The notes below the pieces were generated by a model that was not told the origin of the DNA, searched no databases, and worked only from the letters and a program-made list of their open reading frames with translations. A DNA stretch of 64,000 bases. Source: a phage. Within the stretch, counting starts at the first letter, position 1; every line of letters starts with the position of its first letter. The translations under genes and the position numbers were made by a program. The stretch lies in assembly GCA_026066175.1 (NCBI GenBank), contig GCA_026066175.1_4721.2. One strand, given 5' to 3'. This document shows, in pieces, positions 21,904-42,634 of this stretch.

Positions 21904-21925
21904 AATATGTCAGTTTACTAACTGA

Positions 21926-23257: not shown

Positions 23258-23300
23258 AATTTTGTTTCCTTTACAATAAATTGCACATTAGCTAATGCGG

Positions 23301-23326
23301 CTTAAGCAAGGCTAAAGCTTGCTTAA
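23301..23326 (-). terminator. hairpin CTTAAGCAAG-GCTAAAG-CTTGCTTAA
   Basis: 10-bp stem overlapping the stop of the 23323 gene. Confidence 0.35.
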
Positions 23327-24749: not shown

Positions 24750-24787
24750 GGATAAGCACCTATGCTATTTCAAAACGGTTTTGTATA

Positions 24788-25894
24788 TCAACGGATCTGT
24801 GGGATGTTTCCGGTGCGTAAAGCCTGAAGAATCGCCAACAAATCGGAACCTGAGGTTGAAGAACTGTTGGCTTTCTCCAGCTGTTTGAAGCTGACGGTGG
24901 TTCCCTGATCCATGCTGTGGAAATAGAAGGTCGCCATCTCTTCTGCTTCATCGATGATGATCAGCTGCATCGCAAGGGCTTCAGCCATGACTTTCTGACG
25001 CACGCTGTAATCCGATAAACGACGTCCGATCTTACGCTCGATGGCTTCTTGGTTAGCCTTAGAGATGATATAGGTGGAGGCGATGGCTCCAGAAGAAGGG
25101 ATCTTTGTGCTGGCTGCGGCTTTTGCTGCGTTGATACGCGCCGCGTTAACCGCTTTGCGAATACCTTCTTTATCCATACGCGAAATGCGTTTATGCTCAC
25201 GAACCAGATCACTCAACAGAATGATGTCACTCCAGAAGGACAGTTCACCCGCCATCATGCGATGCCAGCGTGCACGCCAGGTGTTCTGTGGGCCACCAAT
25301 CGCGAGAATAGAGGCGAGCACTTCTGCTGGGGAGCTTGCGATACGCATGCTGATGTTCAACGGCATTTTCATCGTGGCCTGACCATCGGTCAACGTAACC
25401 GTCAGGAACTTCCCGGTCACCGCGTTCGCATCTTTGTTCAGCATTTCAATGGCGGCATCGCTAGCACCGACATCAAGGCTATTTTTCTGTTTTCCTTGTA
25501 AGTTAAAGCCTTTCTCATCAAGGAAGACAAGACTTTTGCTATCCGCGCTTTCGAATGCGATTTTTGCGGCTTTACCGAACAGATCGGCGTTACGATTTGG
25601 GTTAACACGACCCAGGGTTTTATCCACGCTGATGTTACCGACCTGCATGATGGTATTCAACGCCAACAGATAAAAACCGGTATACATGTTTTCGGCGGTA
25701 CGCATGCAGTTGCCTAACGCATTGCGTGCGTCGCTGTAGTACAGTTCACGTTCGAAAATAAGCGGAGCAATGACACGTGACGGTTGCGAGAGTTCAACCA
25801 GCGAACCCGGCTGGATAAGTTTATTGACTTCGTAGACTTTAGCGATACCGGACGCAACAACGTTAACGGCGTCGGCAATTTCTGATGCTACCAT
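24788..25894 (-). CDS. hypothetical protein (368 aa)
   Basis: ATG start; first gene of the long minus block. Confidence 0.8.
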   Translation of the reverse strand: MVASEIADAVNVVASGIAKVYEVNKLIQPGSLVELSQPSRVIAPLIFERELYYSDARNALGNCMRTAENMYTGFYLLALNTIMQVGNISVDKTLGRVNPNRNADLFGKAAKIAFESADSKSLVFLDEKGFNLQGKQKNSLDVGASDAAIEMLNKDANAVTGKFLTVTLTDGQATMKMPLNISMRIASSPAEVLASILAIGGPQNTWRARWHRMMAGELSFWSDIILLSDLVREHKRISRMDKEGIRKAVNAARINAAKAAASTKIPSSGAIASTYIISKANQEAIERKIGRRLSDYSVRQKVMAEALAMQLIIIDEAEEMATFYFHSMDQGTTVSFKQLEKANSSSTSGSDLLAILQALRTGNIPQIR

Positions 25895-25929: not shown

Positions 25930-27138
25930 ATGTCTAATTACTACGACCAAGCTATTCAAACCATTCAGGAGAATAATGCGTCGTTAACACCCGAAGCGGT
26001 GGAGGCGGCGGGCAACACAGCGTTATTCACTGATTCGGATTGGGCAATAGCGCGGAAGAATATTCGTACCAGTGTCGGTCAGGGGACATACGAGGACAGT
26101 ATCGCCAGACGGTATCGAAATGTCTCCCCGATTCCAGGGAACAGCCCGATTCCGATCAACCGCGATCATGCCGGTATCACCTTCTTTACACGACCCAATT
26201 TAAATCTTACCGACGCGAATTTAAAACGCGATCGTCGCTTATGGTCGTTACGTACGGATAACCCCAATAGTATCCAGGCGGTTGTCCGTGACTATTTAGA
26301 CCCTGTAGGAGCCAGAAAGCGTAACCATCGAGGACGTGCCATCGTCGACGAGCGCAATCCATTCATAAGTATACTGACGGATAACCTGACGGATATCAGT
26401 GGTTTTAACGACATGGAGATGCAGGTTTATCAAGGTAAACCCGGATTACGGCAAGAAACCGTGGTGATGGCCGACGGTTCGGTGGATATGTTTCAGCCTT
26501 ATAATCTTAACGCGACGTTCAAGAACATCATGGGTAACCCCATCATGTTCCTTCATTATATTTGGCTGATTTACATTGCAGGCGTGCATAACGGTGAATT
26601 GTCGCCAAGCCCGCAGGCCATCATCGATAACGAGATGGATTATTGGACACGGTGCTATCGCATCATTCTCGATCCTACTGGCATGTATGTTCGTTACATC
26701 TTTGCACCAACAGCGATGTTCCCTGTGGGGCTACCGATTGGTAACATGGCCAACTACAGCATTGATAAGCCATTCACGCAGGATAACGAACGTATCACCA
26801 TTCCGTATCAAGCGGTGGGGAACAACGCGTTCGATGAAATCCTGAAGGACGAATTCAACCGTTTGGTGTTGATGTTCTATTACGGTGATAATGATACCCG
26901 TACGTTCCTTGAGGACGAAGAGGTCGTCCCGATTTCACCCTACGAACGTCGGATTATGTCCTATCGTGTCGATATGTATCCCTTCATCCATCCATTAACC
27001 TCGGAGCTGCTCTGGTTTGTTCCGGCTGATGACTATAATGAATTCTATCTGGATCTTGAACCATCTGCATTACCGCCGGATACGTTCAGTCGCGATCTTG
27101 TCCGTACCACTATTCCGCAAAGTTACGAGGGAGAATAA
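25930..27138 (+). CDS. hypothetical protein (402 aa)
   Basis: ATG with AAGGA SD; stop overlaps the next start (TAAATG). Confidence 0.8.
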   Translation: MSNYYDQAIQTIQENNASLTPEAVEAAGNTALFTDSDWAIARKNIRTSVGQGTYEDSIARRYRNVSPIPGNSPIPINRDHAGITFFTRPNLNLTDANLKRDRRLWSLRTDNPNSIQAVVRDYLDPVGARKRNHRGRAIVDERNPFISILTDNLTDISGFNDMEMQVYQGKPGLRQETVVMADGSVDMFQPYNLNATFKNIMGNPIMFLHYIWLIYIAGVHNGELSPSPQAIIDNEMDYWTRCYRIILDPTGMYVRYIFAPTAMFPVGLPIGNMANYSIDKPFTQDNERITIPYQAVGNNAFDEILKDEFNRLVLMFYYGDNDTRTFLEDEEVVPISPYERRIMSYRVDMYPFIHPLTSELLWFVPADDYNEFYLDLEPSALPPDTFSRDLVRTTIPQSYEGE

Positions 27139-30132
27139 ATGAGCGTAACCAACAAAGATCTTGCCGAACAGCTCAATCGCTATATGCTCTCACCGATTGA
27201 GATGCAAGCTGTTGCAAGTGATATGATTCGCCTGGCCTCCGACGGAGAATTAACTTTGGTTGACCCAAGCTGTCCGTTTGTGTATCTGTTGGAAGTTGCC
27301 ACCGCCACAGCCGCCAACCAGAATGCGCGTGATGAGTCACGGGTGCGCGAACTGTATCCGAAGTTAGCAACGACCTGGAGCCAACTCTACCGTTGGATGT
27401 ACGATGAGTCTTACGTGGGCCGGTTCGCAACACCCGGCAAAACCGAAATCATCTATTCATTAGGTTACCAGGAAATCCTTGATCGCGCTGTTGAAATCCC
27501 AAGCACCGCCGCATCGAACGATTTAAGTCGTTCTTATAGCCGTAAGTTGGTGATTCCACGTACCACGGTGTTTACGGTTGCCGGTATGGATTTTGGGGTG
27601 CATTACCCGATTGAGATTCAGGTACAAGCGCACGATCAAATACGTGCTGTATATAACACGGATACCATCAGCCCGTTACAAACCCTGGAAAGCAACCAGG
27701 TTGAATACGGTGTTGTTCGTGTAAAAGCAGGTAAAGTGCTGGTGATGCGTATTCCGTTATACCAGTTTAAGACGTTAACGAAAGATGTGCCGTTTAACAG
27801 CGTTCACGGGATGAACAGCAGTATCACCTTTGAGGATCAATTCTATCATTGTCGTGCGTATATGTCATCGAACAACGATACCTGGACGGAAATCGCAACG
27901 ACACACAGCCAGCAGATTTACGATCCATTAACACCAACCATCGCATTACAGGTTGAAGGCAATACCCTGAACTGGCGCGTACCTGAAATCTACCTTTCTC
28001 AAGGGACGATGGATAAAAGCACGATACGGCTTGAAGTTCTCACCACGAAAGGTAAGATAAGTGTCGATCCGTCCGATTACGATGTAACGGATTGGAAAGA
28101 TAACTACATCGATCTGTCGCCAAAAGCAGAGCAGAAATACAGTGCGCCGTTAAGCGCATTCAACATTAAGGGTATTTACAGCGAAGGTGCGTTGTCAGGT
28201 GGGCGATCGGCGCTGACTTTTGAAGAACAGCGCGAACGCGTTATGGCGGGTGTGAACAAAACCAAGGTACCGATTACAGGAACGCAGGTGGAACTGGTGT
28301 TGCAAGACGCCGGTTACGGGATGGTCACCACGATCGATAACGTCACGAATCGTTCGTTCCTGGCAACGCGAGATCTTCCGCAGCTGAGCGACAGCGTACC
28401 GCAGGCAGGTTCGTTGATGGGATCTTTCTATACATCGGCTGCTGCGTTGGTGAAAAGCAAATTCGTTGCGGATAATGGCGATCGTATTACGATTAAACCG
28501 GATTGCCTGTACCGGGATAGTAACGGTAACATCACGTTAATGACAGATGACGAGATCGACCGTATTAATGCCGGGAACTCCGACGTCAAACTGAACGCGG
28601 TTAATAATGCGATGGTCATGTATAGCCCGTTCCATTACGTGTTGGACGCAACAAGTGATTTTGATATCCATGCTTATTACTTAGACGCACCGAAAATTGG
28701 TACGCAAGCGTTTCTTGATGCGAACGAAACCATCCCATTAACGGCGATGGTAACCGGTTATCGCCTCGATCGTAATGCTGAAGGATACCGTTTAAATCTT
28801 ATCGTTGAAGGTAACGACGCGTGGAAAGCGCTTGACGATAAGAACGTGCACGTGCAGCTTGCGTTCAACCCGCGCGGTGAAGGTGATTATGCAACGATGG
28901 TTGCATCGCCAACCACGGATGAACAGGGTCGTCGTTTGTTTACGTTTGATATCACGACGAACTACGACTTCACACGGGTGTTGGCTGATGACTCTACAGC
29001 GTACGAGCCGTATATCGCATTGACGTCTTTCTCGATGTATGAATCCACACCACGCGATTACTGGGCGTCATTACAACAGTACCTGGAAATCTTCCATGTG
29101 GTGACGGATTACGCGCCGGAGGACGTTGATGGTATTCTGCATAGTGCTTCCGACAATTACCTGGTTAAGAAACTGACGCTTCAGAATGGTTATTGCTTCT
29201 ATCGTGAACGCCTCACCGCAACCTTCGGTTACGATTTGGACGGTCTCTGGATGCGCTCAAGAACGGTGGCTTCGGAAATCACGTATAAGCGTTACACCGA
29301 GAACATTCCGTGGGTATACGAAGAAGATATTCCAGCTACGGATGAAACAGGTTCGGTGATCATCGAACAAGGTGATGGTGGTACGTTGTCAGTGAAATAC
29401 CTGCACCGTAAAGGGGATCCGAAATTAAACAGTGATGGTAGCCAAGCGTATCGTTATTTGAAAGGCGACATCATGAGAGATAATTACGGGAATCCTATTC
29501 CGGTCGATGAACGTGAGGTTCTGCGTAATCTGGATATGTTCTTTATTGACGCGTCGTATCTCCTGGCGAACGATACCGACGTTGCAGATTACCGTAACGC
29601 GATCCCCACACAACTGATTGAATGGATCCAAAACGATATCAGTACCTTCAGAACGTTCTGTTACGAAGAGACCGAGATCTCACTGTATCCGAAACAATCG
29701 TTGGGTTACGTCGATGTTATCGTTGAAAACGGGTTGGAAACCACACTGCCTGCTGCTTTGTCGTTCAACGTGACGTTGTATTTACCGGCGAAGCAATACG
29801 CTGACCTGGATTTACGTCAGGTACTACAATCGATGGTTTCTAAAGTCATCAATGAGTGCTTAACGTCGCGTACGGTAGCAAAAGCAGAGATGATTGCAAT
29901 GATCCGTGAAGAAGGTGGGGAAGATATCCTGAACGTTGAAATCGATGATTTCGGTCCAGGTAGGAACCTCAGTGTGTATACGGCGAAGAACGACGGTGTT
30001 CGTTGTGCGGTGAAGAAAGAGCTTTACGTGAAAGCAGATGGTATCTTATCTGTACGTGAAGCGATTGACGTGAGCTTTGTAAAACACGCACAAAGCAACA
30101 GTTCTGCATTAGCACAGGGTCTTCGTATCTAA
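27139..30132 (+). CDS. large hypothetical protein (997 aa), probably structural
   Basis: Long ORF coupled to the upstream gene; no enzymatic motif recognised. Confidence 0.85.
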   Translation: MSVTNKDLAEQLNRYMLSPIEMQAVASDMIRLASDGELTLVDPSCPFVYLLEVATATAANQNARDESRVRELYPKLATTWSQLYRWMYDESYVGRFATPGKTEIIYSLGYQEILDRAVEIPSTAASNDLSRSYSRKLVIPRTTVFTVAGMDFGVHYPIEIQVQAHDQIRAVYNTDTISPLQTLESNQVEYGVVRVKAGKVLVMRIPLYQFKTLTKDVPFNSVHGMNSSITFEDQFYHCRAYMSSNNDTWTEIATTHSQQIYDPLTPTIALQVEGNTLNWRVPEIYLSQGTMDKSTIRLEVLTTKGKISVDPSDYDVTDWKDNYIDLSPKAEQKYSAPLSAFNIKGIYSEGALSGGRSALTFEEQRERVMAGVNKTKVPITGTQVELVLQDAGYGMVTTIDNVTNRSFLATRDLPQLSDSVPQAGSLMGSFYTSAAALVKSKFVADNGDRITIKPDCLYRDSNGNITLMTDDEIDRINAGNSDVKLNAVNNAMVMYSPFHYVLDATSDFDIHAYYLDAPKIGTQAFLDANETIPLTAMVTGYRLDRNAEGYRLNLIVEGNDAWKALDDKNVHVQLAFNPRGEGDYATMVASPTTDEQGRRLFTFDITTNYDFTRVLADDSTAYEPYIALTSFSMYESTPRDYWASLQQYLEIFHVVTDYAPEDVDGILHSASDNYLVKKLTLQNGYCFYRERLTATFGYDLDGLWMRSRTVASEITYKRYTENIPWVYEEDIPATDETGSVIIEQGDGGTLSVKYLHRKGDPKLNSDGSQAYRYLKGDIMRDNYGNPIPVDEREVLRNLDMFFIDASYLLANDTDVADYRNAIPTQLIEWIQNDISTFRTFCYEETEISLYPKQSLGYVDVIVENGLETTLPAALSFNVTLYLPAKQYADLDLRQVLQSMVSKVINECLTSRTVAKAEMIAMIREEGGEDILNVEIDDFGPGRNLSVYTAKNDGVRCAVKKELYVKADGILSVREAIDVSFVKHAQSNSSALAQGLRI

Positions 30133-30152
30133 AACAAATAGCGCAAACATAA

Positions 30153-30184
30153 CCCTCCTCCAACCCGTAAGGGAAGGAGGAGGG
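30153..30184. terminator. conserved palindromic hairpin with GTAA loop between convergent genes
   Basis: CCCTCCTCCAACCCGTAAGGGAAGGAGGAGGG; flanked by ACATAA and AATATGCTGTTAT exactly as at 54842-54873. Confidence 0.6.
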
Positions 30185-30193
30185 AATATGCTG

Positions 30194-33100
30194 TTATCTT
30201 ACGTTATTGCTATTCTGCTGTTCACTGAACCAACCATAGACTTTGAGATCGGTACCGTATCTCAGTGCAAGGTATGCGTTCATCGCAGCACAGAACAACG
30301 TCGCGTAGTGCCATAAGAGCTCAACATCCATGTCATCGGGAGTCTTGGTAAAACCAGCACCTGGTACAAAGCGTGACGGTTCATGCATGAACGTGCGGTA
30401 CCAGTCGTGCTGTTGTTGTTTCGTCGTGAAATCACGGTGTGGTTCTAACGCTTCTCTTGCAAGACGACGATACTCGAGAAGATGGTGATTAGCCCGATTA
30501 TTGCGAGGGTAACTGACTTCGTAGTTAGGATCGACAGCTTGGCATAGCGCTGTTGAGTCTAATAACTCGATGGCTTTGACTAACTTATCGCTCGCGTTGG
30601 TGATGAGCGCCGATCTGTAATACTCGATCGAATTAGCAAGTTGCGAATAGAAGTCATCTAAGGCATCTGGATTTGATACCTGCAGATCAAGACCTAATGT
30701 CCACGGATAGCTGCTTTCATCATTGAGTTGCGGTACGACACCCAGGAGATGTTGGCAGATAGCTGCGTGATTATTGAACTGATCGTGGAAAATAGCTCGT
30801 GCAACTTCAATCGCATGATGATAACTCAAACGCCGTTCCTGACGTGTCGTCCTAAATGAGTTAACGGCGAGCAGTCCCGCGGTAGCCGCGCAAACATCAG
30901 TGTCGTTGACGTTGTTAAGCACATAGTTACTAAGCTGGAAAGATTCTTGCTTCAACGTTCCATTGGTCGCCGTTGCTTCGCTATTCGCTTTATCAACGAT
31001 GGTGCTTAGCGCGTTAATATAACGTTTAGCGCGAACTTCCAACCACTGTGCGATCCCAAGCACATCCACAGCCGCTTTAGCAAGGTCACGTGCGTTCACG
31101 ATTTCGTTCTTCAATGCACCCAGCCCTTTATTTTCAGGTGAGGAGGCTTGTTGTCGAATCATGCTGTTCAACATGGTAAGCAGGTTATCCAGCTCGTGTC
31201 CGCTGACCTTGTTACGTGCGTCAGTAATCGGCCCTTGCAGGAATTTACGACAACCGTCATTATACCGAATCAGTTTATCCACGTCGATGGATTCGTTCGC
31301 GGTTTCCTTGAACTGATTCTTTAATTCTTCACGGTAGTCGTGTATCTCGCTTGTAAGATTATCAACGGTGATACCATTGTGACCAAGAAGAACTTTACTG
31401 AAGTTGCCCTTCTCGAACGCCAGTGCGATGCCTTCACGAATCTTAGCCAGCTTATCCTGATCTAACTCACGACCGTTTGACAGTTCTTTCACTTCAGCGC
31501 TGATTATTGCTGCAACTGTTCCAAGGTTATCGGTAACCCCTTTGAACGTGCTTGACCAAACACTTCCCGCTTCAGCGTATTTTGCGATGGTCTGGATACC
31601 GACGCTATGTAGCGACGCTAAACGTTTCTTCGTACCTTCGGTAAGCAATGCATCTTTAGCTCGCGTAAGTTGACTGTTATTGGCTTCCGCTTGCTGGATG
31701 GCCGCTTTCGCATTCCCGTTACGCCAGCTCTTAACCAACCAATCGACTAAACGTTTCAGGATATTGATGGTATATTCCATCGTACGTCGTAACGTTTCCC
31801 ACGCGCTTTCAGCGGTATAGATCCCACCAACAGTGTACCCTTCCATCTTCAGCGCTTTGGTATCGGTTTGACGTGCCAACCATTCTACCGTCGCAGAACA
31901 AACGTTTACGAACGCCTCCAGGTAGTTGTAATAGGCCTCTGTTGCGGAGGTTTCGTTGAGCTTGGAATGCAGATAAAACTGTTCGTATAGCTCGTCGTCA
32001 TCACCGAAGGCGTCGTAGTTCCACAGTTCGGTATCGCAGCCGGTACCACAGAAGACATCCGCCGTTGTAAACTCCTTAAGTGCTTTCGTTGCGTCGTTGG
32101 TCAGGAATTTACCTGTCTCAAGTACGTCGTCAACATTAAGTCTCGGGAGTTCGTCAGTAATTGGGTTTTCCAGCATCAACGTATTGAAGAACACGCTGTA
32201 CTTGTATCCAAGCCATTTTGGATAACTGTTTTCAGATATCGTAGACGCCGGTTTGATTTTCTTGGCTTCAGCCAACGTGTCTTCTGCAACCTGATATTGG
32301 TTTTCCCCAGCTTTGATACGTCGTAATGCTTTTTCTTCCAACTGTTTGAGTTTGGTGTGCCGTGCTTGAGCTGGAGCCTCAACCAGTTTTTGTACCGACC
32401 GCATGGCGGAAATCGCTTCTTTCAATGTGGTGATCGGCATACGAACTTTACCGTCATCGAAACTCAGCGCGCGAGCAATACGTCGACTTACAACAGGTTC
32501 GGTATGGATGTTTCTTTCTACCCACGATTTGTTTGCGTAGGTTTGCGTGATTTGCTGCTGGATCTTTTCAAGATAGCCCCAGCTTTTGGATGCTTTGCCG
32601 TCCAAAAGCGGATTAGGTCCTTTCTTATCAAAAAGCTTTTTGATAGGATCAAAGAAACCTTCTTGCACGAGATCGATACGGGTGTAACCATCAGCTGCTT
32701 CGATTTCTTCTTGGGTTTTATCCCAGAAGTCGTCGCTCTTTGCAGCAACCGCTGTATCTTTAATGTCCAGGATGATCTGACCCACCGTTTGCGCAAACAG
32801 CAAGGCCGCACGTACCGATTGTGCGAACATCCGCTGATATTTGATTCGAACGCATTGCATCTGGGTTAGCAGATTCAGTTGCGCGATCCCATCCAAGGTG
32901 CTATCTTGAGCAAGTCCTTCAGCCTTAGCGATAACCTGTTTTACACGTTCAGCGACATCAACGTATTGCTGGCATACATCCCGCAGAATACGTGCTGCGA
33001 AGACCCCGGTACCGATATAGTTCAACAGGTCTTTTAATGACCATTCAGACGGACAATCGGCTGGTGCGGTAGGGAGTAAGCAACCATCACCGTCCATGAA

Positions 33101-33799
33101 TCGCTCTAATGCGCTAATATCCTGATTTTCTACGCTCATGGGGATATCGACATCAGCCGCTTGCAGATCCAGCATCTGTTGTAGGATGTTGGTGTCGGCT
33201 TGTACGAGCGTTGCAAGCGCTCGGCTGTGTGAGATTATTGGTAACGCTGGTGACCATACTGCAGCAAGCTTGTCGGCGTGACGTTGAATGGCATACCCCA
33301 TATCCTCGATCACATCGGGATGCTCGATAACCCCCTGAAGCGTTTGATGCAGCTCACCGAGTTGCTGAGACAGATCGACCATCATGGTGTTGAAGGTTTC
33401 GCCATCCTCTTTGTGGTTGTCCAGACGCTCGAGTTCATGTTGCAGCAATGCGACGAGCTGTCCGTTGCCTTCTTGCTTCAGCTTGCTTTCCATTAATGTA
33501 ATGGCTTTATCGACGATCTGACGCGCTTCACGAAAACCGGTTGTGGAAGGAAGCTCTGTCCATAACGCCAGCGGTTTACCGTCAAGGGCTTCCGGCATCG
33601 ATAACGAAAGCATAGTCAGTTGTTGGCGTGATACTTGCTGTTCACGGTGTAATGTTTCTTTTAACGCCAGGAGATCGTCAAGAAACGCGCCGTTAAGGGC
33701 GGTCGTACGCGGTGTTGAATTAATACCGTCAGTTAATGATTCAAGCACCAGGAGACCGTTATCAGCTGAAGAGAGTCCCGCGGCAAGATATTTGTTCAT
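30194..33799 (-). CDS. giant helical protein (about 1201 aa)
   Basis: Start moved to in-frame ATG at 33799 (GGAG SD) so the 33815-33845 hairpin is intergenic. Shares an LVQEGF...KLF motif with the 931-aa neighbour. Confidence 0.85.
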   Translation of the reverse strand: MNKYLAAGLSSADNGLLVLESLTDGINSTPRTTALNGAFLDDLLALKETLHREQQVSRQQLTMLSLSMPEALDGKPLALWTELPSTTGFREARQIVDKAITLMESKLKQEGNGQLVALLQHELERLDNHKEDGETFNTMMVDLSQQLGELHQTLQGVIEHPDVIEDMGYAIQRHADKLAAVWSPALPIISHSRALATLVQADTNILQQMLDLQAADVDIPMSVENQDISALERFMDGDGCLLPTAPADCPSEWSLKDLLNYIGTGVFAARILRDVCQQYVDVAERVKQVIAKAEGLAQDSTLDGIAQLNLLTQMQCVRIKYQRMFAQSVRAALLFAQTVGQIILDIKDTAVAAKSDDFWDKTQEEIEAADGYTRIDLVQEGFFDPIKKLFDKKGPNPLLDGKASKSWGYLEKIQQQITQTYANKSWVERNIHTEPVVSRRIARALSFDDGKVRMPITTLKEAISAMRSVQKLVEAPAQARHTKLKQLEEKALRRIKAGENQYQVAEDTLAEAKKIKPASTISENSYPKWLGYKYSVFFNTLMLENPITDELPRLNVDDVLETGKFLTNDATKALKEFTTADVFCGTGCDTELWNYDAFGDDDELYEQFYLHSKLNETSATEAYYNYLEAFVNVCSATVEWLARQTDTKALKMEGYTVGGIYTAESAWETLRRTMEYTINILKRLVDWLVKSWRNGNAKAAIQQAEANNSQLTRAKDALLTEGTKKRLASLHSVGIQTIAKYAEAGSVWSSTFKGVTDNLGTVAAIISAEVKELSNGRELDQDKLAKIREGIALAFEKGNFSKVLLGHNGITVDNLTSEIHDYREELKNQFKETANESIDVDKLIRYNDGCRKFLQGPITDARNKVSGHELDNLLTMLNSMIRQQASSPENKGLGALKNEIVNARDLAKAAVDVLGIAQWLEVRAKRYINALSTIVDKANSEATATNGTLKQESFQLSNYVLNNVNDTDVCAATAGLLAVNSFRTTRQERRLSYHHAIEVARAIFHDQFNNHAAICQHLLGVVPQLNDESSYPWTLGLDLQVSNPDALDDFYSQLANSIEYYRSALITNASDKLVKAIELLDSTALCQAVDPNYEVSYPRNNRANHHLLEYRRLAREALEPHRDFTTKQQQHDWYRTFMHEPSRFVPGAGFTKTPDDMDVELLWHYATLFCAAMNAYLALRYGTDLKVYGWFSEQQNSNNVR

Positions 33800-33814
33800 A
33801 AAACACTCCGTTGG

Positions 33815-33845
33815 CCTAGGGGAAGGCTGAAAACCTTCCCCTAGG
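33815..33845 (-). terminator. perfect 12-bp hairpin CCTAGGGGAAGG-CTGAAAA-CCTTCCCCTAGG
   Basis: Between the two giant genes. Confidence 0.5.
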
Positions 33846-33858
33846 GTTATAAACACAA

Positions 33859-36654
33859 TTAAGCTAATTTACCGAAACCGGCTTTCTGCAGTTTCTCGTT
33901 GATGATTTTCGCTTCAGCGAAGACGTAATCGCGGTAGGCGGTCACTAACGCATCCACGCGTGAACGCAAGGCTTCTTCGAAGCTATACCAGGCGGCGATT
34001 TCACGAATCTGCACGCTGATATAATCAACGGTTGAGCGAAGCTCGGTTGCGTTTTCTTGCGGGATGGCTTTCACTTGGCGAGCAACATCGCTTAAACGGC
34101 GGAACTGTGTTTCGATTTCTTTAAACTTACTGTCGGCAAGTTTGCTGAATTCGTCACCAGAACGGGTAAATAACAGATAGCTGTTGCCGTCAAGTGCGGT
34201 CGCTAACTGCTGAAGTACGTTGGTGTCCGGATACACAGGAGTACCGCTTTGCAGTACTTTCTCACCGAATTCCGCGAAGTCCTTCGGTGGTAAGTGTGCA
34301 GACGTTGTCAATTCGTTGAAACGGAAAGTCAGCGAATTATCATACAGCATCCGGTACGCTTCCATACCCTGTTTCATGGTACCGGCCAGGTTAGCCAGAC
34401 GCGGAGCAATCTCGCCTTCTTTAGCGCGTTTCTGGTCTTCTAACGCCCCTTCGAGTTCTTTACACTGGTCGTTCAGATACACGATACGATCAGGACGTAG
34501 ACGACGCATCTCACGAAGAATAGTATCCAGCTTACCTTCCTGGAAATAACCCAACGTTAAAGACGTACACGCTTGCTGAAGACGATCGAACACCGGTAAG
34601 GTTACCATCTCCTTACGGATACCATCAACAATCGCAGAAACAGCCGAAAGTTTCTGTTCTGTAGTCAATGGAACATCAGAGGCCGACTTGCTGGGTGCAC
34701 CAACAACGTTACGCATTGCGTCGGTATCCTCGGTTTTATCAACCTCTTTACGAACATGCTCATCAGGAACATAAACGTTCGCGTTACGTTTCGCCTGCTT
34801 GATGGCGTCGTTGGCCGCTTTTTCGGTGGCCGCTACGCTATCGGCACGTTTCTTCAAGAGTTCAATAATCCAGAGCAACAGACGACGAATCGCAGTGTAG
34901 GCTGTCGTGATGATGACACCGATAACAGCCATCTTCATGATACCGAACGATTCCATGGTCGGCTCTAACGCTTGGTCTGGCATATACCGTTCACGCAGCT
35001 CCAGATAGATCTGCTCATCTGGTTTGCTGACCTCACCACGATGCGAAGTCCGATAAATGGCTTCGTCAATCTCAACAAGATCTTTGCGTGCCTGACGGTC
35101 AGATTCTGTTAGGTAAGCACAACCGGATACGTCGTCTTCGAAGCTTAAGAATTTGAAAAAGTCACTGACGTCGATCTTGATCTTCTTCGCTTCATTATCG
35201 ACATCGATAACATCTTTTTTCTGTGCCTGATATTCCGCTTTGATGTCGTTCACCGGCTTCAACGCACGTTCTTTTAATACCTGCACGATCTGTTTCCAGT
35301 CGGCGTCACGCTCAAGAACAAGGAAGTAATTCTTGAGTTCAAAAGCACGGTAACGCGCAACGAGTTGTTCTACCTGAATATGAGCGAGTTGCACATCCAT
35401 CAGCCAACGCGACATTGCTGAGATCAAACGGCTATAAGCAAGCAATGTCTGATATGTTAGCTTCATGTGCTTTTCGTACAGCTCAATATCGCCGTCTTGA
35501 ATATCAGCCGTTGGGTTCATTTCCTTCGTTGCTTTGAAGATCTGTTCGGCCTCATTTAACGTTTGTTCGAATTTGACTTCATTAAACGTGTCAAACGGTT
35601 CAGCCAACTCCATCATTCGATCGTGAAGCTCACGAACCCAGGCTTCCTTATTGTTGCGAATAGCTGCGTCATCGTGAAGTTCAGTTTGATGTTTCTGTAC
35701 CCATTCTTCGACGATATCAGCGGCGGCAACAATTCCTGTACCATCGGAAACTAACGGAACAACTCCAGCAAGTACGCCTACACACGCCGGGGTTTTCCAA
35801 TAATCGTTCAAAGCGTTTCTGAATTCAACGATGGATTGTACGTTTGGTACCGTATCCAAAAACGTACTGCCGTTACGGCTCATTGTCGTTACGATATCAG
35901 CGAATTCCTTCTGCTTAGCGGTAACAAAAGGAACCAGGACCATAAGCCATTCAGCAACCGACTTCGCTTTCTCTTTCAGATTTTTGTCAGCGATTTCCTT
36001 AAGGTTTATCGCACCACCGTAACCTGCAAGCTCTTTATATACGTCGCTAAGGGTCATCTGTTTATCCAACATTTCTTTGAAACGTGGGTAATCAGCACCT
36101 AACGCATCGACAATATCGTTGATTACGTCATCAGTTGTTGCGATAAACTTCTTCGTATCAACGTTTGAATATTTCCAGACGTATCGTACTGCTTTCTTGA
36201 TTCCTGCAAAGATAAACGCCCAGATACGCTTGATGAGTTCCCAGACTTTCTTCGCGCCATCGACAAACAGTTTAGAGACCTTGGCAACGAATCCTTCCTG
36301 CACCAATTCAACGCCGTTACGTGATGGGATTTCCGTGAAGAAAGCATCCGGCAGTTGTTTCGGGAATGCGTCACCAAGACGCATACGCAGTTCCGGTACA
36401 TCAGCACGAGAAATACCGCGTGTTACTAATTGTTCGTGAAGACGAACGTTTTCTTCACCAGAGGTCACGAATTCGTCAACATCGAAGGAGACCATTGTTT
36501 CCTGATCTTCGGTGGTAACGACGCTTGAACCATCACTGGTTTGGATGTCTTCGTCAGGGAATGCCATGAGCATACCGTGACGCATTTCAACCACCCCGTA
36601 ATCGGTTGCTAAACCGAATTCGTTGTGGTCTGGGGTAATAACTGGGATACTCAT
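33859..36654 (-). CDS. giant helical protein (931 aa)
   Basis: ATG start overlapping the upstream stop (ATGA); motif GVELVQEGFVAKVSKLF. Confidence 0.85.
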   Translation of the reverse strand: MSIPVITPDHNEFGLATDYGVVEMRHGMLMAFPDEDIQTSDGSSVVTTEDQETMVSFDVDEFVTSGEENVRLHEQLVTRGISRADVPELRMRLGDAFPKQLPDAFFTEIPSRNGVELVQEGFVAKVSKLFVDGAKKVWELIKRIWAFIFAGIKKAVRYVWKYSNVDTKKFIATTDDVINDIVDALGADYPRFKEMLDKQMTLSDVYKELAGYGGAINLKEIADKNLKEKAKSVAEWLMVLVPFVTAKQKEFADIVTTMSRNGSTFLDTVPNVQSIVEFRNALNDYWKTPACVGVLAGVVPLVSDGTGIVAAADIVEEWVQKHQTELHDDAAIRNNKEAWVRELHDRMMELAEPFDTFNEVKFEQTLNEAEQIFKATKEMNPTADIQDGDIELYEKHMKLTYQTLLAYSRLISAMSRWLMDVQLAHIQVEQLVARYRAFELKNYFLVLERDADWKQIVQVLKERALKPVNDIKAEYQAQKKDVIDVDNEAKKIKIDVSDFFKFLSFEDDVSGCAYLTESDRQARKDLVEIDEAIYRTSHRGEVSKPDEQIYLELRERYMPDQALEPTMESFGIMKMAVIGVIITTAYTAIRRLLLWIIELLKKRADSVAATEKAANDAIKQAKRNANVYVPDEHVRKEVDKTEDTDAMRNVVGAPSKSASDVPLTTEQKLSAVSAIVDGIRKEMVTLPVFDRLQQACTSLTLGYFQEGKLDTILREMRRLRPDRIVYLNDQCKELEGALEDQKRAKEGEIAPRLANLAGTMKQGMEAYRMLYDNSLTFRFNELTTSAHLPPKDFAEFGEKVLQSGTPVYPDTNVLQQLATALDGNSYLLFTRSGDEFSKLADSKFKEIETQFRRLSDVARQVKAIPQENATELRSTVDYISVQIREIAAWYSFEEALRSRVDALVTAYRDYVFAEAKIINEKLQKAGFGKLA

Positions 36655-37091
36655 GCATTCTCTCCTTGCAGTGCGTTAGCGAAAGCCGTTGCGAGTTGCG
36701 CAACCAGCTTAGGATCAACACCTTCGATAACGTCGGGCAGCCCTGCGGTTTCTTGGTCACGAACGGCGGAGGCTAATAACAGCATGGTTTCAGGTGCGGT
36801 CGGCTCATGCACCATGCGGTAACGCAGGCACCAGAAGTAGCGGGCAACGTCTAACGCATCGGCCAGCCCAATAACCAGTACCTTGTTCAGCTTATCCAGC
36901 CCTTCACGGATTTTAGGGAGATGTTCGCGAACGAAAATGCTATCTGCGGTCAGATCTTCTTTTTCAGCGAATACGGGCATGCTGTAACCAGCGATATAAC
37001 CTGCGGCAATACTTAGCGCACGGGTCTGTTGTTCGGCTGGGAAATCACGTACCAGGTCTTTCAGTTGAACAGCGAAATCAGAAATATTCAT
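36651..37091 (-). CDS. hypothetical protein (146 aa)
   Basis: ATG start; coupled to the 931-aa gene. Confidence 0.7.
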   Translation of the reverse strand: MNISDFAVQLKDLVRDFPAEQQTRALSIAAGYIAGYSMPVFAEKEDLTADSIFVREHLPKIREGLDKLNKVLVIGLADALDVARYFWCLRYRMVHEPTAPETMLLLASAVRDQETAGLPDVIEGVDPKLVAQLATAFANALQGENA

Positions 37092-37124
37092 GTTAAATTC
37101 CTTTATAGTAGAAGGTGAATTAGG

Positions 37125-38435
37125 TTACGCGATGATGGAGTCGAGTTTCGCTGACGCTTTGAACAGATCGTTGTTCATTGTTGAAGAAAGGACTTGCTGA
37201 ATCTCTTCCTGTTTAACGGCTTTACGAACCCCAGGACGAAGGATAAGCGTAACCATCTGCGAGAAGGTACGATTATTGTTCATCACACTCAGTGTTTCAT
37301 CGATTGTTTTGATGGTATCCAACGTCATGGAACGAACATCGCTTGGGATATCACGATCTTTCAGGCGTATGATTAAATCTTGTTTGATTTTACGGAATCG
37401 TTCCATGTCGTTATCGTAAATGTTGTATGTTGGATCTAACCAAACCGAAAGCGCGGTTACCGCTACAACAACTAACACGCCGATAGCACCAACAGAAGCT
37501 AAACCTATCGCCATCATGGAGACGATAGTAGCATCCATGATGAAGGAGAGCCAGAACATCGTTTTGGACTTCATGGAGTTGGTACCATAAAGTCGAAACA
37601 TTTTAGCAAGCCCGCTAACGAGATACTCCCCACCACCATGACGCGTAGCGAACTGATCAGCCATGAATTCGGAAGAAACGTCGGTATAGCGTCCAGCGTT
37701 GTTGACATTTCTTAACTGCATCGCTTTGTTAGAAACATAAACCGTGTACCAGACATTACCATCGTCTGAATCGCTGATTTTGTTTACGTCGACGTTAGTA
37801 TCCAGCGTTTTGTTTAACGCCTTAGCCAGTTCAATACGTTTTACCTTATCGGTTGTCCCTAGCAGTTCACGCTGTACAGTCATGATTGAGGCTTCAACAC
37901 GAACCGTTTCCGATAATGTTTCAAGGAAAGTAAATGCGTGCCCGATTTCATGCAGCATTATGGCCGCTTTTTCTTCCGGAATAAATGGTTCTGTCGCTGT
38001 TAGCAATTCATACGTGATGGCGGAACGAATCTTCAATTCCTCAAAGATACCGTAAACACGACCTTTTTCTAAATCGACATAACCGACAGGCGTATCTTTA
38101 ATCTTCTTAAGGAGTGTGACACCATCGGCACCGCGCATCCATAATCGATGATAGTCTGCCATGATCGTGTTGTTTGTCGAAATATCCGGCGGGTACACGT
38201 AGGCGTTCATCTGGCCCATTTTCACATCAACCGAAAATTCGATGTTCAACCCCGTATAGCGTTTAACCATCTCGGTTAAATGACCGTCCTTGAAAACGTT
38301 TAAAACCTCTTTTTTATCCAGTCCTTGTTTGCTTCTGAAGAACTCGGTCATTTCCTTGAACAAAGAACCATCCTGGAATTTGATGGCCTCCATCGTTAAC
38401 TCGTCATGACCATACACACGTTGTAGTAATGACAT
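37125..38435 (-). CDS. putative HtpX/M48-like zinc metalloprotease with membrane hairpin (436 aa)
   Basis: HEXXH at product residues 162-166 (AAIMLHEIGHAF); about 90 aa downstream SSEFMADQFATRHGGGEYLVSGLAKMFRL resembles the M48 third-ligand region (E. coli HtpX [25 protein letters not shown]); about 40-residue hydrophobic stretch at residues 293-333. Confidence 0.75.
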   Translation of the reverse strand: MSLLQRVYGHDELTMEAIKFQDGSLFKEMTEFFRSKQGLDKKEVLNVFKDGHLTEMVKRYTGLNIEFSVDVKMGQMNAYVYPPDISTNNTIMADYHRLWMRGADGVTLLKKIKDTPVGYVDLEKGRVYGIFEELKIRSAITYELLTATEPFIPEEKAAIMLHEIGHAFTFLETLSETVRVEASIMTVQRELLGTTDKVKRIELAKALNKTLDTNVDVNKISDSDDGNVWYTVYVSNKAMQLRNVNNAGRYTDVSSEFMADQFATRHGGGEYLVSGLAKMFRLYGTNSMKSKTMFWLSFIMDATIVSMMAIGLASVGAIGVLVVVAVTALSVWLDPTYNIYDNDMERFRKIKQDLIIRLKDRDIPSDVRSMTLDTIKTIDETLSVMNNNRTFSQMVTLILRPGVRKAVKQEEIQQVLSSTMNNDLFKASAKLDSIIA

Positions 38436-38509
38436 TTTACACTCTCTAAATTTACGTAAATTTAAGGGTTGGTTAAAAGCAGGTTGGCTGGCCTCGCCAA
38501 TCTGTCACA

Positions 38510-38528
38510 GCCGTTGTGCTGCAACGGC
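38510..38528. other. hairpin GCCGTTG-TGCTG-CAACGGC in the divergent intergenic region
   Basis: 7-bp perfect stem in the 182-bp gap between divergent starts 38435 and 38618. Confidence 0.3.
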
Positions 38529-38617
38529 ATTCATAGAAATACCTTCGGTTAAAAACAACAGAACGTGAGGATGATATAGAAATTCACCTTCTAACCTTTA
38601 TTAGAGTCTATCACGTT

Positions 38618-40117
38618 ATGAGCGAACAAGAACAAAAACTCAAGAAGAAACTGCTCGGTATTCAATGTCGACACATCAGTTATAACGAAGCCAACGATGG
38701 CAGCAAGAACGATCTCATGATTGCAAAAGAGATCATGTTCTTCGATGACAACACACAAGCCACCAACCTGCGGTTCTTTGAAAACCACAAACGTCCGTTT
38801 TGGGTTACAGTTGAAAGCAAACGTAAGAACAAATATAAAAAGGAAAGCGAGAAGCTCTCAAACGTACGTCGTTATGAGGTACGCCAAAGCGAACTGGTTG
38901 AGAAAATCAGTTCGGTGCTTTATAAACGACGTGCTGACGATAACACCCGTTTACAACAGCTTGCGCGGAGTCCTTACCTCTATGGAACGGACGTTAGCGC
39001 CAGCTGCTATTTAAAAACCCAGTACAATACAAAATGGCCGGAATACGTTGATAAACTGCCTGCTTCTATCGCATGTTTCGATATCGAAACCGACGTTGTC
39101 CACGGGCACGGTAAGATCGTTTGTATGTCTATTACAATGGGCTACAACGCGATTCTTTGTTACACCCAGGACTTCGTTGGTCATATTCCGAATGCGATTG
39201 AGAAAACCCGTGAGAAGATTCGTTATTACCTGGCCGACCGTTTAAACACCAAAGAGGATCCTCACGCCTTTGAAAAATACCATTACGATATTCGCATTGT
39301 AGAAAGCCCTGCGCAAGCGGTGATTCAATGCATGCAGAAGGTGCACGAATGGCAGCCGGATTATCTCCTTGGCTGGAACATCGCGTTCGATATTCCGCGT
39401 ATGCTCCAGGCATTGCAGGACGAAGGTTATCGTCCCGAGGATGTTTTCTCCGATCCTCGCGTACCACCGAAATACCGTTTAGCACGCTGGGTACCACCTA
39501 AAACCGATAAGGTATCGGCATCAGGCCGTAAAACCAACCTTACCCTTGAGCAAACCTGGCCAATGTTTTATACGATGGCCACGTATCAGGTTATGGATGC
39601 GATGTGTGGTTATAAGTTCGTTCGTTTAGGAAGACCGGATGAAGGACGCTACTCACTCGATGCGGTGTTAGAGCGAAATAAATGCCATACGAAATTAAAA
39701 GCGATCCCAGGTACCGAAGGGTTCACGGAGCTCGCCTGGCACGAAGAGATGCAAACGAACCATCAAATCGACTACGGTGTATATAACCTTTGGGATAACC
39801 AAGGCATCGAGGCGTTGGACCAGAAAACAAAAGACTATTCGATGACCATCCCTATCCGTTTAGCAGCGTCGGATTTGAAAGATTTCAGTTCCAACCCTAA
39901 ACGTATCTGTGATAAACTTTTCTTCGTTTATCTCAACCGTGGGGAAGTCATGGGATGTACTGCTGATGACATGACGCAAGAGGAGGATAAATGGGTGATT
40001 TCACGTGCAGGGCATATCGTGACCTTGCCGTGCGATCTCATGGCGGATAACGGCATCCATCTCTTCTGGGATATGCCAAATCTAAGAAGCTATATTCGAT
40101 TATTTGTTGCGGATTAA
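38618..40117 (+). CDS. family-B DNA polymerase N-terminal/3-prime-5-prime exonuclease domain protein (499 aa)
   Basis: DEDDy motifs in PolB-like order and spacing: Exo I ACFDIETD (residues about 152-158), Exo II LLGWNIAFDIPRML (about 251-264), Exo III YSLDAV (about 345-350). No polymerase motifs A/B/C. Confidence 0.75.
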   Translation: MSEQEQKLKKKLLGIQCRHISYNEANDGSKNDLMIAKEIMFFDDNTQATNLRFFENHKRPFWVTVESKRKNKYKKESEKLSNVRRYEVRQSELVEKISSVLYKRRADDNTRLQQLARSPYLYGTDVSASCYLKTQYNTKWPEYVDKLPASIACFDIETDVVHGHGKIVCMSITMGYNAILCYTQDFVGHIPNAIEKTREKIRYYLADRLNTKEDPHAFEKYHYDIRIVESPAQAVIQCMQKVHEWQPDYLLGWNIAFDIPRMLQALQDEGYRPEDVFSDPRVPPKYRLARWVPPKTDKVSASGRKTNLTLEQTWPMFYTMATYQVMDAMCGYKFVRLGRPDEGRYSLDAVLERNKCHTKLKAIPGTEGFTELAWHEEMQTNHQIDYGVYNLWDNQGIEALDQKTKDYSMTIPIRLAASDLKDFSSNPKRICDKLFFVYLNRGEVMGCTADDMTQEEDKWVISRAGHIVTLPCDLMADNGIHLFWDMPNLRSYIRLFVAD

Positions 40118-40210
40118 CCTTCGTTCTGTAAAAGTTTACCGATGTATGGAAATTTCTGTGAGATACCAAAGGTACTCGATAAGTTTAGGAATTTCTGGAC
40201 GGAGGTAATT

Positions 40211-41347
40211 ATGTTGGAACATCTTGAGTGTTTGGACAATGAATACTTAAATTTCACCAATCGTCGTTATCGTATCTTCGAGGACGGTACCCTCTACGAT
40301 TATAAAGAGAATCGCAAAGTACCCGTCATCATCGAAGACAACAACTCTTACGTTATCATTGACTGGTATCGTGGAGTGGGTAAATACGAGCTGGGAATGA
40401 TCATACTTACGGCATTTGATCGAATCCATATCCCTAACTATCTCTACGACGAAATCGAATCTTTGTTTATTGACAACGATCCGACGAATTTCTCGTATAG
40501 TAACCACATCTATCGTTTCCGTAACGGTCCGTTAGCGGTGGAAGGGTATCCGGGGTACTACTACATCCCGTTTGCCACGTACTATGCGTTAAATGAACAA
40601 GGTGAATGTTTAAGTCTCTTGTCGGGGGAAGGTATAACGTGGACAATGACGCCACAGAACGGCACACGACGTCCAGGCTATCGATACAGAAAAGTAACAC
40701 CCGATAGTGGGTTCACAGCCCAACTGTATCGTCATCGTGCGTTGATGTTAACGTTCCGTCGTTATGATGCGAGCGTTGTAGAAATGACCGTTAATCACAA
40801 GAACGGGATTAAAGGCGATGATTGGCTGGATAACCTTGAATGGGCAACCTACAAGGAAAACAACAATCATGCGCGTATCAACGGCTTATGCGACGGTAAA
40901 GCAAAACCCGTTAAGATCTTTGATTACGTTCGTCACACCGAGCGTCAATTCAAAAGCATCGCTGAAGCAGAACGCGCTTATCCACACGTTGCAAAAGGAC
41001 GTTTCAAATGGTGGGTTGAGAATCCGCCGAAACGCATTCCAGAATGCAACCTGTACATTAAACATGCGTTCGATAACACCCCATGGCCAGAATGGAAACT
41101 GGGTGACGATCGTCGTATTGAGGATGTATCAGGTATTCCTATCATTGCACTGAACATGGTAACCGGCGAGAAACGAGTGTATCCGTCGGTTACTGCTGCA
41201 GGTAAAGATACGAAAACAAGTTGGATAACCGTAAGACGTCATTGCGATAGGCGTGTTGTTCCTGCGAAACAAGCCTGGTGCTTCCGTTATGTTGATGATG
41301 TCAAGAATATGCCGGAGTTAACCTCCCCACCAACAATCGAACAGTAA
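40211..41347 (+). mobile_element. HNH homing endonuclease ORF (379 aa from ATG 40211)
   Basis: GGAGGT SD 7 nt upstream; HNH core LYRHRALMLTF...VNHKNGIKGDDWLDNLEWATYKENNNHA (nt about 40763-40886). Confidence 0.8.
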
Positions 41348-41349
41348 CG

Positions 41350-41830
41350 ATAACAGGTCCCCCTACTTGTAATGAGTGGGTGAACTCTCTTTAATTGCTG
41401 GAAACCTTTAATGCCCCTCCACACCACAACGCAATCCGAAAGGGTAAACGTGACGGTTGTCGAAAGACAGAAAGAAGTTGGAGGGGATCACCTAAGCTGA
41501 AATAAAAGCCGTTACTTTCTGGATATGGGAAGAGTCTAACGGTGCTAAGGGTTCTGCTAGAAATAAGGTAACCGTAGCAGCGAAGACCCTACGGACTGTC
41601 GTGACCAACTCACTGAGTTGGCGTGGTGAAACACGGACAGACTACGGGTAACGTTCAACGACCATCCGGTTGCGCGGAGTAGGAGAAATAGGATGTTCTC
41701 TGAAAAGGGAGAAGTCGGTCGAGGTGTTGTAGAAACACCGTTGCTTTGCTTCGCAAACATAAGACAGGCTAAGATATGGTCTATATTAAATGTAATACTA
41801 TGATGTATAGAATTTAATGGCTCGATATTA
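41350..41830 (+). ncRNA. candidate group I intron catalytic core (or degenerate remnant)
   Basis: About 500 nt without ORF; R-like GTTCAACGACCATCC (41653-41667) and S-like AAGATATGGTCTA (41771-41783) can form P7 (GACCA/TGGTC) with a compensatory change relative to the canonical GACTA/TAGTC; Q/P-like GCAATCCGAAAGGG at 41431-41444; several local hairpins. Confidence 0.4.
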
Positions 41831-41859
41831 GCAGTTCATATCCAAATGGGCAGATCCTT

Positions 41860-42075
41860 TTGAATCTATCCAGAGCGTGCGTATTTCGTGAGCTTTCACG
41901 GATTGAGGGCGTCTCTGATTATCAATTCAGGAAGCTGGGTATTAACTTCATCACGGGCGGTAAAACGAATGCGGTTGACTTCTGCCGAATCGTTCATAAA
42001 GCCCCGTCGATGTTCGAACTGTTAGCGCATTTTGACGCGACACGTCCGAAGGAAGCGCCAAAGACCCTTGATTGA
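41860..42075 (+). CDS. small ORF (71 aa, TTG start); possibly the 3-prime exon of the upstream gene rather than an independent gene
   Basis: Open frame begins at 41818 right after the intron-like core; followed by an A11 run and a bidirectional terminator. Confidence 0.25.
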   Translation: MNLSRACVFRELSRIEGVSDYQFRKLGINFITGGKTNAVDFCRIVHKAPSMFELLAHFDATRPKEAPKTLD

Positions 42076-42100
42076 AAAAAAAAAAGAAACGCATGCGAAG

Positions 42101-42131
42101 CCCCTCCCCTGGCGGAAGCCGGAGGGAGGGG
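42101..42131. terminator. hairpin CCCCTCCCCTGGC-GGAA-GCCGGAGGGAGGGG with flanking A11/T-rich tracts
   Basis: Variant of the conserved hairpin; A-run 42076-42086 gives a U-tract for the minus-strand cluster, TTTTATGCG on the plus side. Confidence 0.6.
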
Positions 42132-42148
42132 TGGAGGTTTTATGCGTT

Positions 42149-42634
42149 TTATGCGCGTTCGCTGCTAACCATGACTTTATAATCAGCGTCGGTTAAGAAG
42201 ATAGACAGGAAGCCATGTTCTTTGCAAAGCTCACTAAGGACCTCGGTAATGATTTCATTGATCAATGGTTTATTTGCGAGAGCGTAGATATACCCATCAG
42301 TAAAAGAAAGGGCATGTTTAATCATCGGCTCATGAGACGCCAGGACAAGGATCACATGGTGTTGACCATCATCGGTAACGACCGCTTGCGTCGACACAAA
42401 GAAACCAGTGAAGCCGCATTGGTAACTGGCTTTAGGGATATATAAATCACCTAAAGCTTCGTCACGCGCTTTCATGTGGGTTTCAGGCGTGATGCTACTA
42501 AGCTGATCTTCGGCGATATCCAGAGTCTCTTCAACGGTTTTCAGAATGGCTTCTTTGAAATCCTTGCGGTAGACCTGGATAATTTCACGGTCGTTGATGT
42601 AATCGCCGGATTCGATGGTAAAGTTCAAGTTCAT
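42149..42634 (-). CDS. small hypothetical protein, tandem array member (161 aa)
   Basis: GGAG SD followed by an A-run before ATG; C-terminal EHGFLSIFLTDADYKV strand similar to the family motif. Confidence 0.7.
   Translation of the reverse strand: MNLNFTIESGDYINDREIIQVYRKDFKEAILKTVEETLDIAEDQLSSITPETHMKARDEALGDLYIPKASYQCGFTGFFVSTQAVVTDDGQHHVILVLASHEPMIKHALSFTDGYIYALANKPLINEIITEVLSELCKEHGFLSIFLTDADYKVMVSSERA

Follow-up and report, generated by a model that had tools for sequence, protein, structure and literature searches.

The 64,000-nucleotide stretch of phage DNA analysed here (contig GCA_026066175.1_4721.2 of assembly GCA_026066175.1; hereafter the window) encodes on its minus strand, at positions 37125-38435, a protein of 436 residues that is very probably an active virion metallopeptidase, as judged from its sequence and those of its relatives. 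We give about even odds to the fuller reading, that it is a catalytically competent, divergent M48-like enzyme, held at low copy number inside the head and acting at a membrane after ejection; the membrane role after ejection, taken by itself, is put at even or somewhat below. Over positions 36000-40200 the window is 89.7% identical in nucleotide sequence to Escherichia phage vB_EcoM_Goslar, a jumbo phage of the Chimalliviridae that forms a nucleus. Identity of the protease to Goslar gp067 is 90.8%, and to phiKZ gp84 it is 26% across 94% of the protein; the gene order is the same. Further orthologues are SPN3US gp45 and RAY gp286, and the group corresponds to chimallivirus core gene cg22 and to PHROG 2767. 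The gene and the parts of its product are as follows.

37125-38435, minus strand: coding sequence of the putative M48-like virion metallopeptidase, 436 residues, ATG start, taken from the list of open reading frames (ORFs).
38388-38435, minus strand: residues 1-16, N-terminal propeptide ending in T-M-E16, a predicted prohead-protease site (conserved motif).
37566-38387, minus strand: residues 17-290, predicted zincin catalytic domain, comprising a beta-sheet and two helices, one of the active site (153-192) and one bearing the glutamate (252-283).
37938-37952, minus strand: HEIGH, residues 162-166, predicted to supply two zinc-binding histidines and the catalytic glutamate (HExGH invariant in 214 of 214 sequences).
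37656-37670, minus strand: EFMAD, residues 256-260, with E256 as the predicted third zinc ligand and D260 as the aspartate of the gluzincin ExxxD (invariant; aligned to ZMPSTE24).
37434-37562, minus strand: residues 292-334, predicted hydrophobic helical hairpin with helices 291-314 and 317-333 (Kyte-Doolittle values and AlphaFold2 model).
37128-37418, minus strand: residues 340-436, C-terminal helical domain opening with Y340-D341-x-P-x-x-R346 (conservation and helices of the model).

The initial annotation, made from the letters of the window, had proposed an M48-like zinc metalloprotease, unlike the usual serine type of prohead protease, and profile searches and motif conservation bear this out, pointing to an M48-like HExxH...ExxAD gluzincin. 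HEIGH at residues 162-166 and an EF-x-AD motif about 90 residues further on are both present in the product, the latter as EFMAD at 256-260 (SSEFMADQ begins at residue 254). The number of HExxH motifs expected by chance from the protein's own composition is 0.005. The AlphaFold2 models are confident: at full length the predicted local distance difference test score (pLDDT) is 80 and the predicted template modelling score (pTM) 0.81, and for residues 17-290 the pLDDT is 88.6. Both contain a beta-sheet, then the long active-site helix 153-192, then the glutamate helix 252-283. Residues 1-16 are disordered in the full-length model (pLDDT <50).

Conservation was assessed with 75 homologues from a word-indexed search, with alignments of 46, 99 and 140 sequences, and, for motif counts, with 214 family sequences; the aligned homologues are approximately 20-32% identical to the query. 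Eight columns, G129, H162, E163, G165, H166, E256, D260 and R346, are invariant in all three alignments, and every one of the 214 family sequences has HExGH followed by ExxxD 73-98 residues downstream. In gluzincins the aspartate of ExxxD supports a zinc-binding histidine. That His, Glu, His, Glu and Asp never vary fits gluzincin chemistry and is a strong argument for a functional active site. H162, H166 and E256 would bind zinc, E163 would serve as the general base and D260 would support a histidine ligand.

The family is large. A profile search of 1.84 billion representatives retrieved 4,043 clusters (at 50% identity) at E <=1e-3, and 1,762 of these at E <=1e-30; the best 150 matches were almost all full-length, at 410-455 residues. 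PHROG 2767 is matched at E 4e-83 over residues 12-433. With tblastn, 221 phage records were found, nearly all of them jumbo phages of Pseudomonas, Erwinia, Salmonella, Serratia, Ralstonia and Vibrio, including phiKZ with PHIKZ084.

Kinship with M48 peptidases is distant. The query alone scores 11.6 bits (E 0.25) against Pfam Peptidase_M48 (PF01435), below the gathering threshold of 20.3 bits, and this sub-threshold alignment pairs residues 139-280 with profile positions 50-165. When the 46 homologues were scanned singly, 27 matched PF01435 at E <1 (best 2.5e-5); in the independent set of 99, seven reach approximately the gathering score for this family, and no other family attains that level. 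Comparison of the family profile with all PDB sequences retrieved human ZMPSTE24 at E 3e-4 with both motifs aligned: 'eEiaAilLHEiGH' of the profile to 'EEVLAVLGHELGH', and profile 'RssEqlADqFAtRhGaGraLvtaLdKlnrly', with its 'AD-FA--hG' pattern, to ZMPSTE24 412-442. With hhalign, the family profile matches the single E. coli sequences of HtpX and BepA weakly and in the HExxH region only (probabilities of 81% and 20%, respectively). NCBIfam HtpX models give marginal matches for 2 of the 46 members, and the homologue scans gave no match to Pfam M56. A Foldseek search of the full-length model against the PDB returned no significant match, the comparison being dominated by elongated helical parts. 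Far from placing the protein in a non-peptidase family with unconserved motifs, the profile and fold searches returned solely M48-type gluzincins (ZMPSTE24/Ste24p, BepA and 3c37), all weakly, and HExGH and ExxxD are kept throughout the family. We conclude that the protein is probably a gluzincin with M48 enzymes as its closest relatives; since the matches are weak, it is regarded as a divergent, phage-specific branch.

With the M48 peptidases (Ste24p/ZMPSTE24, HtpX, BepA, LoiP, Oma1; PF01435; MEROPS clan MA(E)) the phage protease shares the HExxH helix and an ExxAD glutamate on a following helix. Its third-ligand motif, EFMAD, compares with EFQAD in ZMPSTE24, EFHAD in HtpX and EQEAD in BepA, and within the phage family either A or S precedes the D. 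HExxH and this glutamate are approximately 94 residues apart; in HtpX the distance is 83 and in BepA it is 65. HtpX and Ste24 are membrane-associated via hydrophobic helices, the counterpart of which in the phage protease is the predicted hairpin. Beyond the M48 pattern, the phage protein ends in a further helical domain of about 100 residues (with YDxPxxR), has a propeptide that is cleaved off and is packaged in the capsid.

The initial annotation also noted a hydrophobic stretch of about 40 residues that follows the catalytic motifs, unlike the arrangement in HtpX, and this is indeed seen at approximately residues 292-336, with a Kyte-Doolittle maximum over 19 residues of 2.57. In E. coli HtpX the hydrophobic segments are at 1-54 and 148-219, the latter between HEISH139 and E222. 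The phage protease has no N-terminal transmembrane segment and its hairpin comes after E256. Among the 214 family sequences, 208 have a 19-residue Kyte-Doolittle value of at least 1.6 within 20-90 residues after ExxxD. The position of the hairpin is kept in the homologues whereas its sequence is not, and a central Pro or Gly is common. A hydrophobic segment of fixed position and free sequence is what would be expected of a lipid-facing helical hairpin.

Directly after the hairpin lies the motif YDxPxxR (residues 340-346, approximately 37398-37418 of the window), which rivals the catalytic residues in conservation: R346 is invariant, and Y340, D341 and K359 are at least 90% conserved. This motif could be a juxtamembrane element or could contact the active site.

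Some better-known membrane metallopeptidases have a different layout. The HtpX subfamily (M48B) was ruled out, given the lack of N-terminal transmembrane helices and the placement of the hairpin after the Glu ligand. An M48 lipoprotein protease of the LoiP/YcaL type was likewise ruled out, as no signal sequence or lipobox occurs in the N-termini of the 46 homologues, which are short polar leaders ending in [SAGT]-x-E. BlaR1, which with MecR1 stands for family M56, differs from the phage protease in that its protease domain is preceded by three transmembrane helices and followed by a penicillin-binding sensor.

Evidence on packaging and processing comes from orthologues that are at most 91% identical to the protein of the window, and not from this exact phage. 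In the virion tables of Goslar, gp067 is represented by 19 peptides covering 46.8% of the sequence, among them the active-site peptide AAIMLHEIGHAFTFLETLSETVR, and is estimated at 32, 48 or 76 copies per virion (10.64898/2026.04.21.720040). Another gp067 peptide, AIKFQDGSLFKEMTEFFR, has a non-tryptic N-terminus at A17, right after E16 (10.64898/2026.04.21.720040); the N-terminal 34 residues of gp067 and of the window protein are identical. SPN3US gp45 is a head protein cut by the prohead protease gp245, and its propeptide, at approximately 20 residues, is unusually short and has been likened to T4 capsid-targeting sequences (PMC5694885, PMC10052503). In the family, [S/A/G/T]-x-E16 followed by A or S is conserved in the alignment and occurs in 188 of 214 sequences, in agreement with the published prohead-protease specificity S/A/G-x-E. 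Because of the virion peptides, the Goslar peptide that begins right after E16 and the published cleavage of SPN3US gp45, the protease is regarded as packaged cargo that the serine prohead protease cuts, and not as the maturation protease itself. The idea that it might be an alternative to that serine enzyme is thus not sustained, as SPN3US gp45 and the Goslar A17 peptide point to a protein that is itself packaged in the head and cut there by the serine protease.

These observations can be joined in the following model. The protease is made late and taken into the prohead, where the serine prohead protease cuts after T-M-E16 and frees a short propeptide of the targeting type. Tens of copies stay in the DNA-filled head; these would then be ejected with the DNA, like the virion RNA polymerase (vRNAP) and the proteins of family PF12699. 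Ejection with the DNA appears most likely because the capsid has no membrane, yet a hairpin of about 40 residues is conserved. The hairpin might then insert into the host inner membrane or into the membrane of the early-phage-infection (EPI) vesicle, and the enzyme might cleave a substrate close to that membrane. This could be a protein of the host envelope or membrane, or else a phage protein ejected along with it.

Several reports are consistent with such a course. The vertex-complex partners of phiKZ, the gp184 and gp162 family, are injected, and the protein encoded next to the protease position in SPN3US, gp47, has a transmembrane helix and behaves as an ejection protein that is essential. 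The surroundings of the protease gene, rich in genes for head-internal and ejection proteins, are indirect evidence of the same kind. In T4, short cleaved leaders mark injected cargo, a parallel that has been drawn in print (PMC5694885). The internal proteins of T4 (IPI-III and Alt) share with the phage protease a short N-terminal propeptide cut by the prohead protease, and packaging in the head. The chimallivirus vRNAP and T7 gp16, both ejected virion enzymes, share with it the concept of an enzyme that travels in the virion and works in the next host. No metallopeptidase with a membrane hairpin is among these proteins, and ejection of the phage protease itself is here only presumed.

The membrane in question might be that of the EPI vesicle, into which chimalliviruses eject many head proteins and whose membrane proteins and channels are without assignment (PMC12908238, PMC10541120). 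It is possible, though improbable, that the protease works on this vesicle as one of its missing phage-encoded membrane proteins. In such a role it might cleave host inner-membrane or co-ejected phage proteins and so form, stabilise or later open the vesicle; opening would let the genome pass to the nascent phage nucleus. The genes adjoining that of the protease, which belong to the vertex complex, might then form with it a module for its docking and delivery.

Some observations weigh against ejection and a membrane role. The neighbouring gene products stay firmly attached within the capsid, and about 55 copies would be compatible with a capsid-resident role as well. In the literature examined, no proteolytic activity, zinc binding, ejection or membrane insertion is reported for any member of the family. 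Transposon-insertion sequencing (Tn-seq) of phiKZ found no disruptive insertions in PHIKZ084, by which essentiality of gene 84 is suggested; yet orf85-86 are likewise without insertions and can nevertheless be deleted, so that the gap in gene 84 may not mean essentiality (PMC12676376). As a separate observation on these data, PHIKZ084-088 all lack disruptive transposon insertions, for which the authors blame polar effects (PMC12676376); no same-strand gene lies downstream of phiKZ orf86, so this explanation is not obvious for the genes in question.

The protease might instead remain in the capsid as a peptidase of maturation or clean-up, for example one degrading the propeptide and scaffold fragments that the serine prohead protease sets free, so that these exit the shell, with the hairpin as a protein-protein anchor rather than a membrane segment. 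We consider this main rival unlikely, although the gene order supports it: in phiKZ, SPFM4, RAY, PCH45, pVa-21 and the window the protease gene always precedes the gp85-like and gp86-position genes, which in phiKZ and Goslar encode vertex-complex proteins. The figure of approximately 48 copies (32-76) for Goslar gp067 is also near the 55 of the monomeric vertex-complex proteins. There is unassigned density beside gp65 in the Goslar map; gp067 is, however, not in the modelled density of the Goslar or phiKZ capsid. The serine protease alone is enough in T4-type systems, where, moreover, short cleaved propeptides are the mark of injected cargo (PMC5694885). Finally, Kyte-Doolittle values of 2.2-2.9 that are not accompanied by sequence conservation look like those of a lipid-facing segment rather than of a specific protein interface.

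Two further explanations seem to us quite improbable, and equally so. One is that the zincin fold has been kept merely as a scaffold or binding module in a structural virion protein that is a pseudo-enzyme, which would account for the fact that nearly all databases and papers say only 'virion structural protein' and that no activity is reported. Pseudo-enzymes normally lose catalytic residues, whereas here H, E, H, E and D are invariant in 214 sequences of 20-30% identity with variable surroundings. The other is a late intracellular membrane protease, concerned with lysis timing, superinfection exclusion or remodelling of the host envelope, and present in virions only incidentally. Cellular M48 enzymes such as HtpX, BepA and LoiP do act on envelope proteins, and the hairpin could enter the host inner membrane during translation. 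On the other hand, 19 peptides and tens of copies were found in purified Goslar virions, the protein is a head protein in phiKZ and SPN3US, and its processing by the prohead protease implies a location inside the prohead. In addition, lysis genes do not adjoin the protease gene, and the protein has no signal peptide or lipobox. The role in lysis or superinfection control that the initial annotation entertained therefore sits poorly with a propeptide of the targeting type and about 50 copies in purified virions.

The preferred reading, a membrane protease delivered with the genome, bears on a poorly understood stage of infection. Nucleus-forming jumbo phages first enclose the injected genome in a lipid vesicle, and published work names the formation of this vesicle, its membrane proteins and the exit of the genome from it as open questions (PMC12908238, PMC10541120). 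A virion protein that belongs to the core genes, apparently confers fitness and has an intact predicted metalloprotease site together with a conserved hairpin of membrane type is a concrete candidate for this stage. Should the protein act in the capsid instead, it would be the first case in tailed phages of a second protease taking part in head maturation, and a metal-dependent one. In either case a family of thousands of clusters at 50% identity has been left as 'hypothetical/virion structural protein' in the main literature.

Earlier publications already describe the family, its place in the virion and its processing. Prichard et al. 2023 enter cg22 in their core-genome table as a 'putative virion structural protein', and the GenBank label of PHIKZ084 is 'structural head protein'. 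None of the phiKZ, SPN3US and Goslar papers examined names the gp84-family protein a protease, and no functional study was found in the literature on gp84, PHIKZ084, M48 or metalloproteases in jumbo phages, although earlier discussion elsewhere is possible. The initial annotation had called a metalloprotease in a phage unusual: the M48-like gluzincin stands, but the resemblance to M48 is already present in a few GenBank annotations, such as 'M48 family lipoprotein protease' in Serratia phages Moabite and Yaphecito, 'peptidase' in Erwinia phage AH06 and 'beta-barrel assembly-enhancing protease' in Proteus phage 7. What sets this M48-like gluzincin apart is its layout, namely propeptide, soluble catalytic domain, hairpin after the motifs and helical domain with YDxPxxR; its setting in a capsid is unusual.

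The protease gene is the first of four tightly packed genes on the minus strand, which are followed below in the direction of transcription together with a stem-loop between the last two.

36651-37091, minus strand: gene of 146 residues, orthologue of Goslar gp66 and phiKZ gp85 (vertex binding complex dimer), after a gap of 33 nucleotides from the protease gene.
33859-36654, minus strand: gene of 931 residues, orthologue of Goslar gp65 and phiKZ gp86 (inner-capsid vertex binding complex), overlapping the 146-residue gene by 4 nucleotides.
33815-33845, minus strand: stem-loop between the 931- and 1201-residue genes (-27 kcal/mol, z -3.55).
30194-33799, minus strand: gene of 1201 residues, orthologue of Goslar gp064, with an insertion of about 280 residues relative to Goslar.

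Products of the middle two genes, phiKZ gp85 and gp86 or Goslar gp66 and gp65, belong to the inner-capsid vertex binding complex, the structure of which has been solved. Goslar gp064 is present in virions at approximately 110 copies but is absent from the placed proteins of the map (10.64898/2026.04.21.720040). The two large neighbouring genes of the initial annotation, described there as giant and helical, do exist, with products of 931 and 1201 residues (the latter from an ORF of 1220 residues), but they are not anonymous, the 931-residue protein being the counterpart of Goslar gp65 and phiKZ gp86. The suggestion that the M48-like enzyme processes these neighbours fares less well: in phiKZ the serine protease gp175 makes the cut in gp86, at S-Q-E, so that an M48-like enzyme is not needed for this step.

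In the syntenic regions of phiKZ, SPFM4 (SPN3US-like), RAY, PCH45, pVa-21 and the window, the protease gene is accompanied by a gene of approximately 140-170 residues and by one or two larger genes, and the cassette lies between a DNA polymerase gene, which points away from it, and a gp87-like gene, which points towards it. Further on along the minus strand there are genes for PF12699 internal head proteins and a PF25618 gp91-type vertex-binding protein. The proximity of these genes and of the vertex-complex cassette places the protease gene, by gene content, within a module of head-internal and ejection proteins.

Searches of the cassette and its surroundings gave several null results. A Pfam scan of the 146-, 931-, 1201- and 997-residue neighbours gave no match, PADLOC found nothing in the four cassette proteins, and there is no detectable paralogy between the 931- and 1201-residue proteins. 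Rfam and tRNA scans of 30000-42600 were empty. Scans for sigma-70 promoters and for terminators gave numbers at or below shuffle expectation, which is not meaningful since the phage uses its own RNA polymerases.

Some details of the region may be added. The PF12699 genes form a run of paralogues of the phiKZ internal head protein within 16660-25894 on the minus strand, and the PF25618 protein is encoded at 23323-23853. A PF23971 tail-tube-like protein resembling phiKZ gp88 is encoded at 25930-27138, within a plus-strand region that extends over 25930-30132. On the other side, within 40142-42148, an ORF of 401 residues resembling HNH/NUMOD-type homing endonucleases (the counterpart of Goslar gp069) comes directly after a DNA polymerase fragment of 499 residues. 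It is followed by about 800 nucleotides with no ORF of at least 100 residues, no Rfam family and no tRNA, and there is a similar unannotated gap in Goslar.

The ORF of 1220 residues (30194-33856, minus strand) has its real start at M20, giving 1201 residues. Compared with Goslar gp064 (930 residues), the insertion of about 280 residues lies at approximately residues 407-669, and the N-terminal and C-terminal parts are 95% and 73% identical, respectively. Upstream of this gene, the stem-loop at 33815-33845 has a 14-bp stem that is identical in Goslar (locus L001, approximately 6790-6840). Its 7-nucleotide loop is the reverse complement of that in Goslar (TTTTCAG versus CTGAAAA), indicating that the hairpin has been flipped. 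This stem-loop may be an internal terminator, an attenuator or a processing site that splits the cassette.

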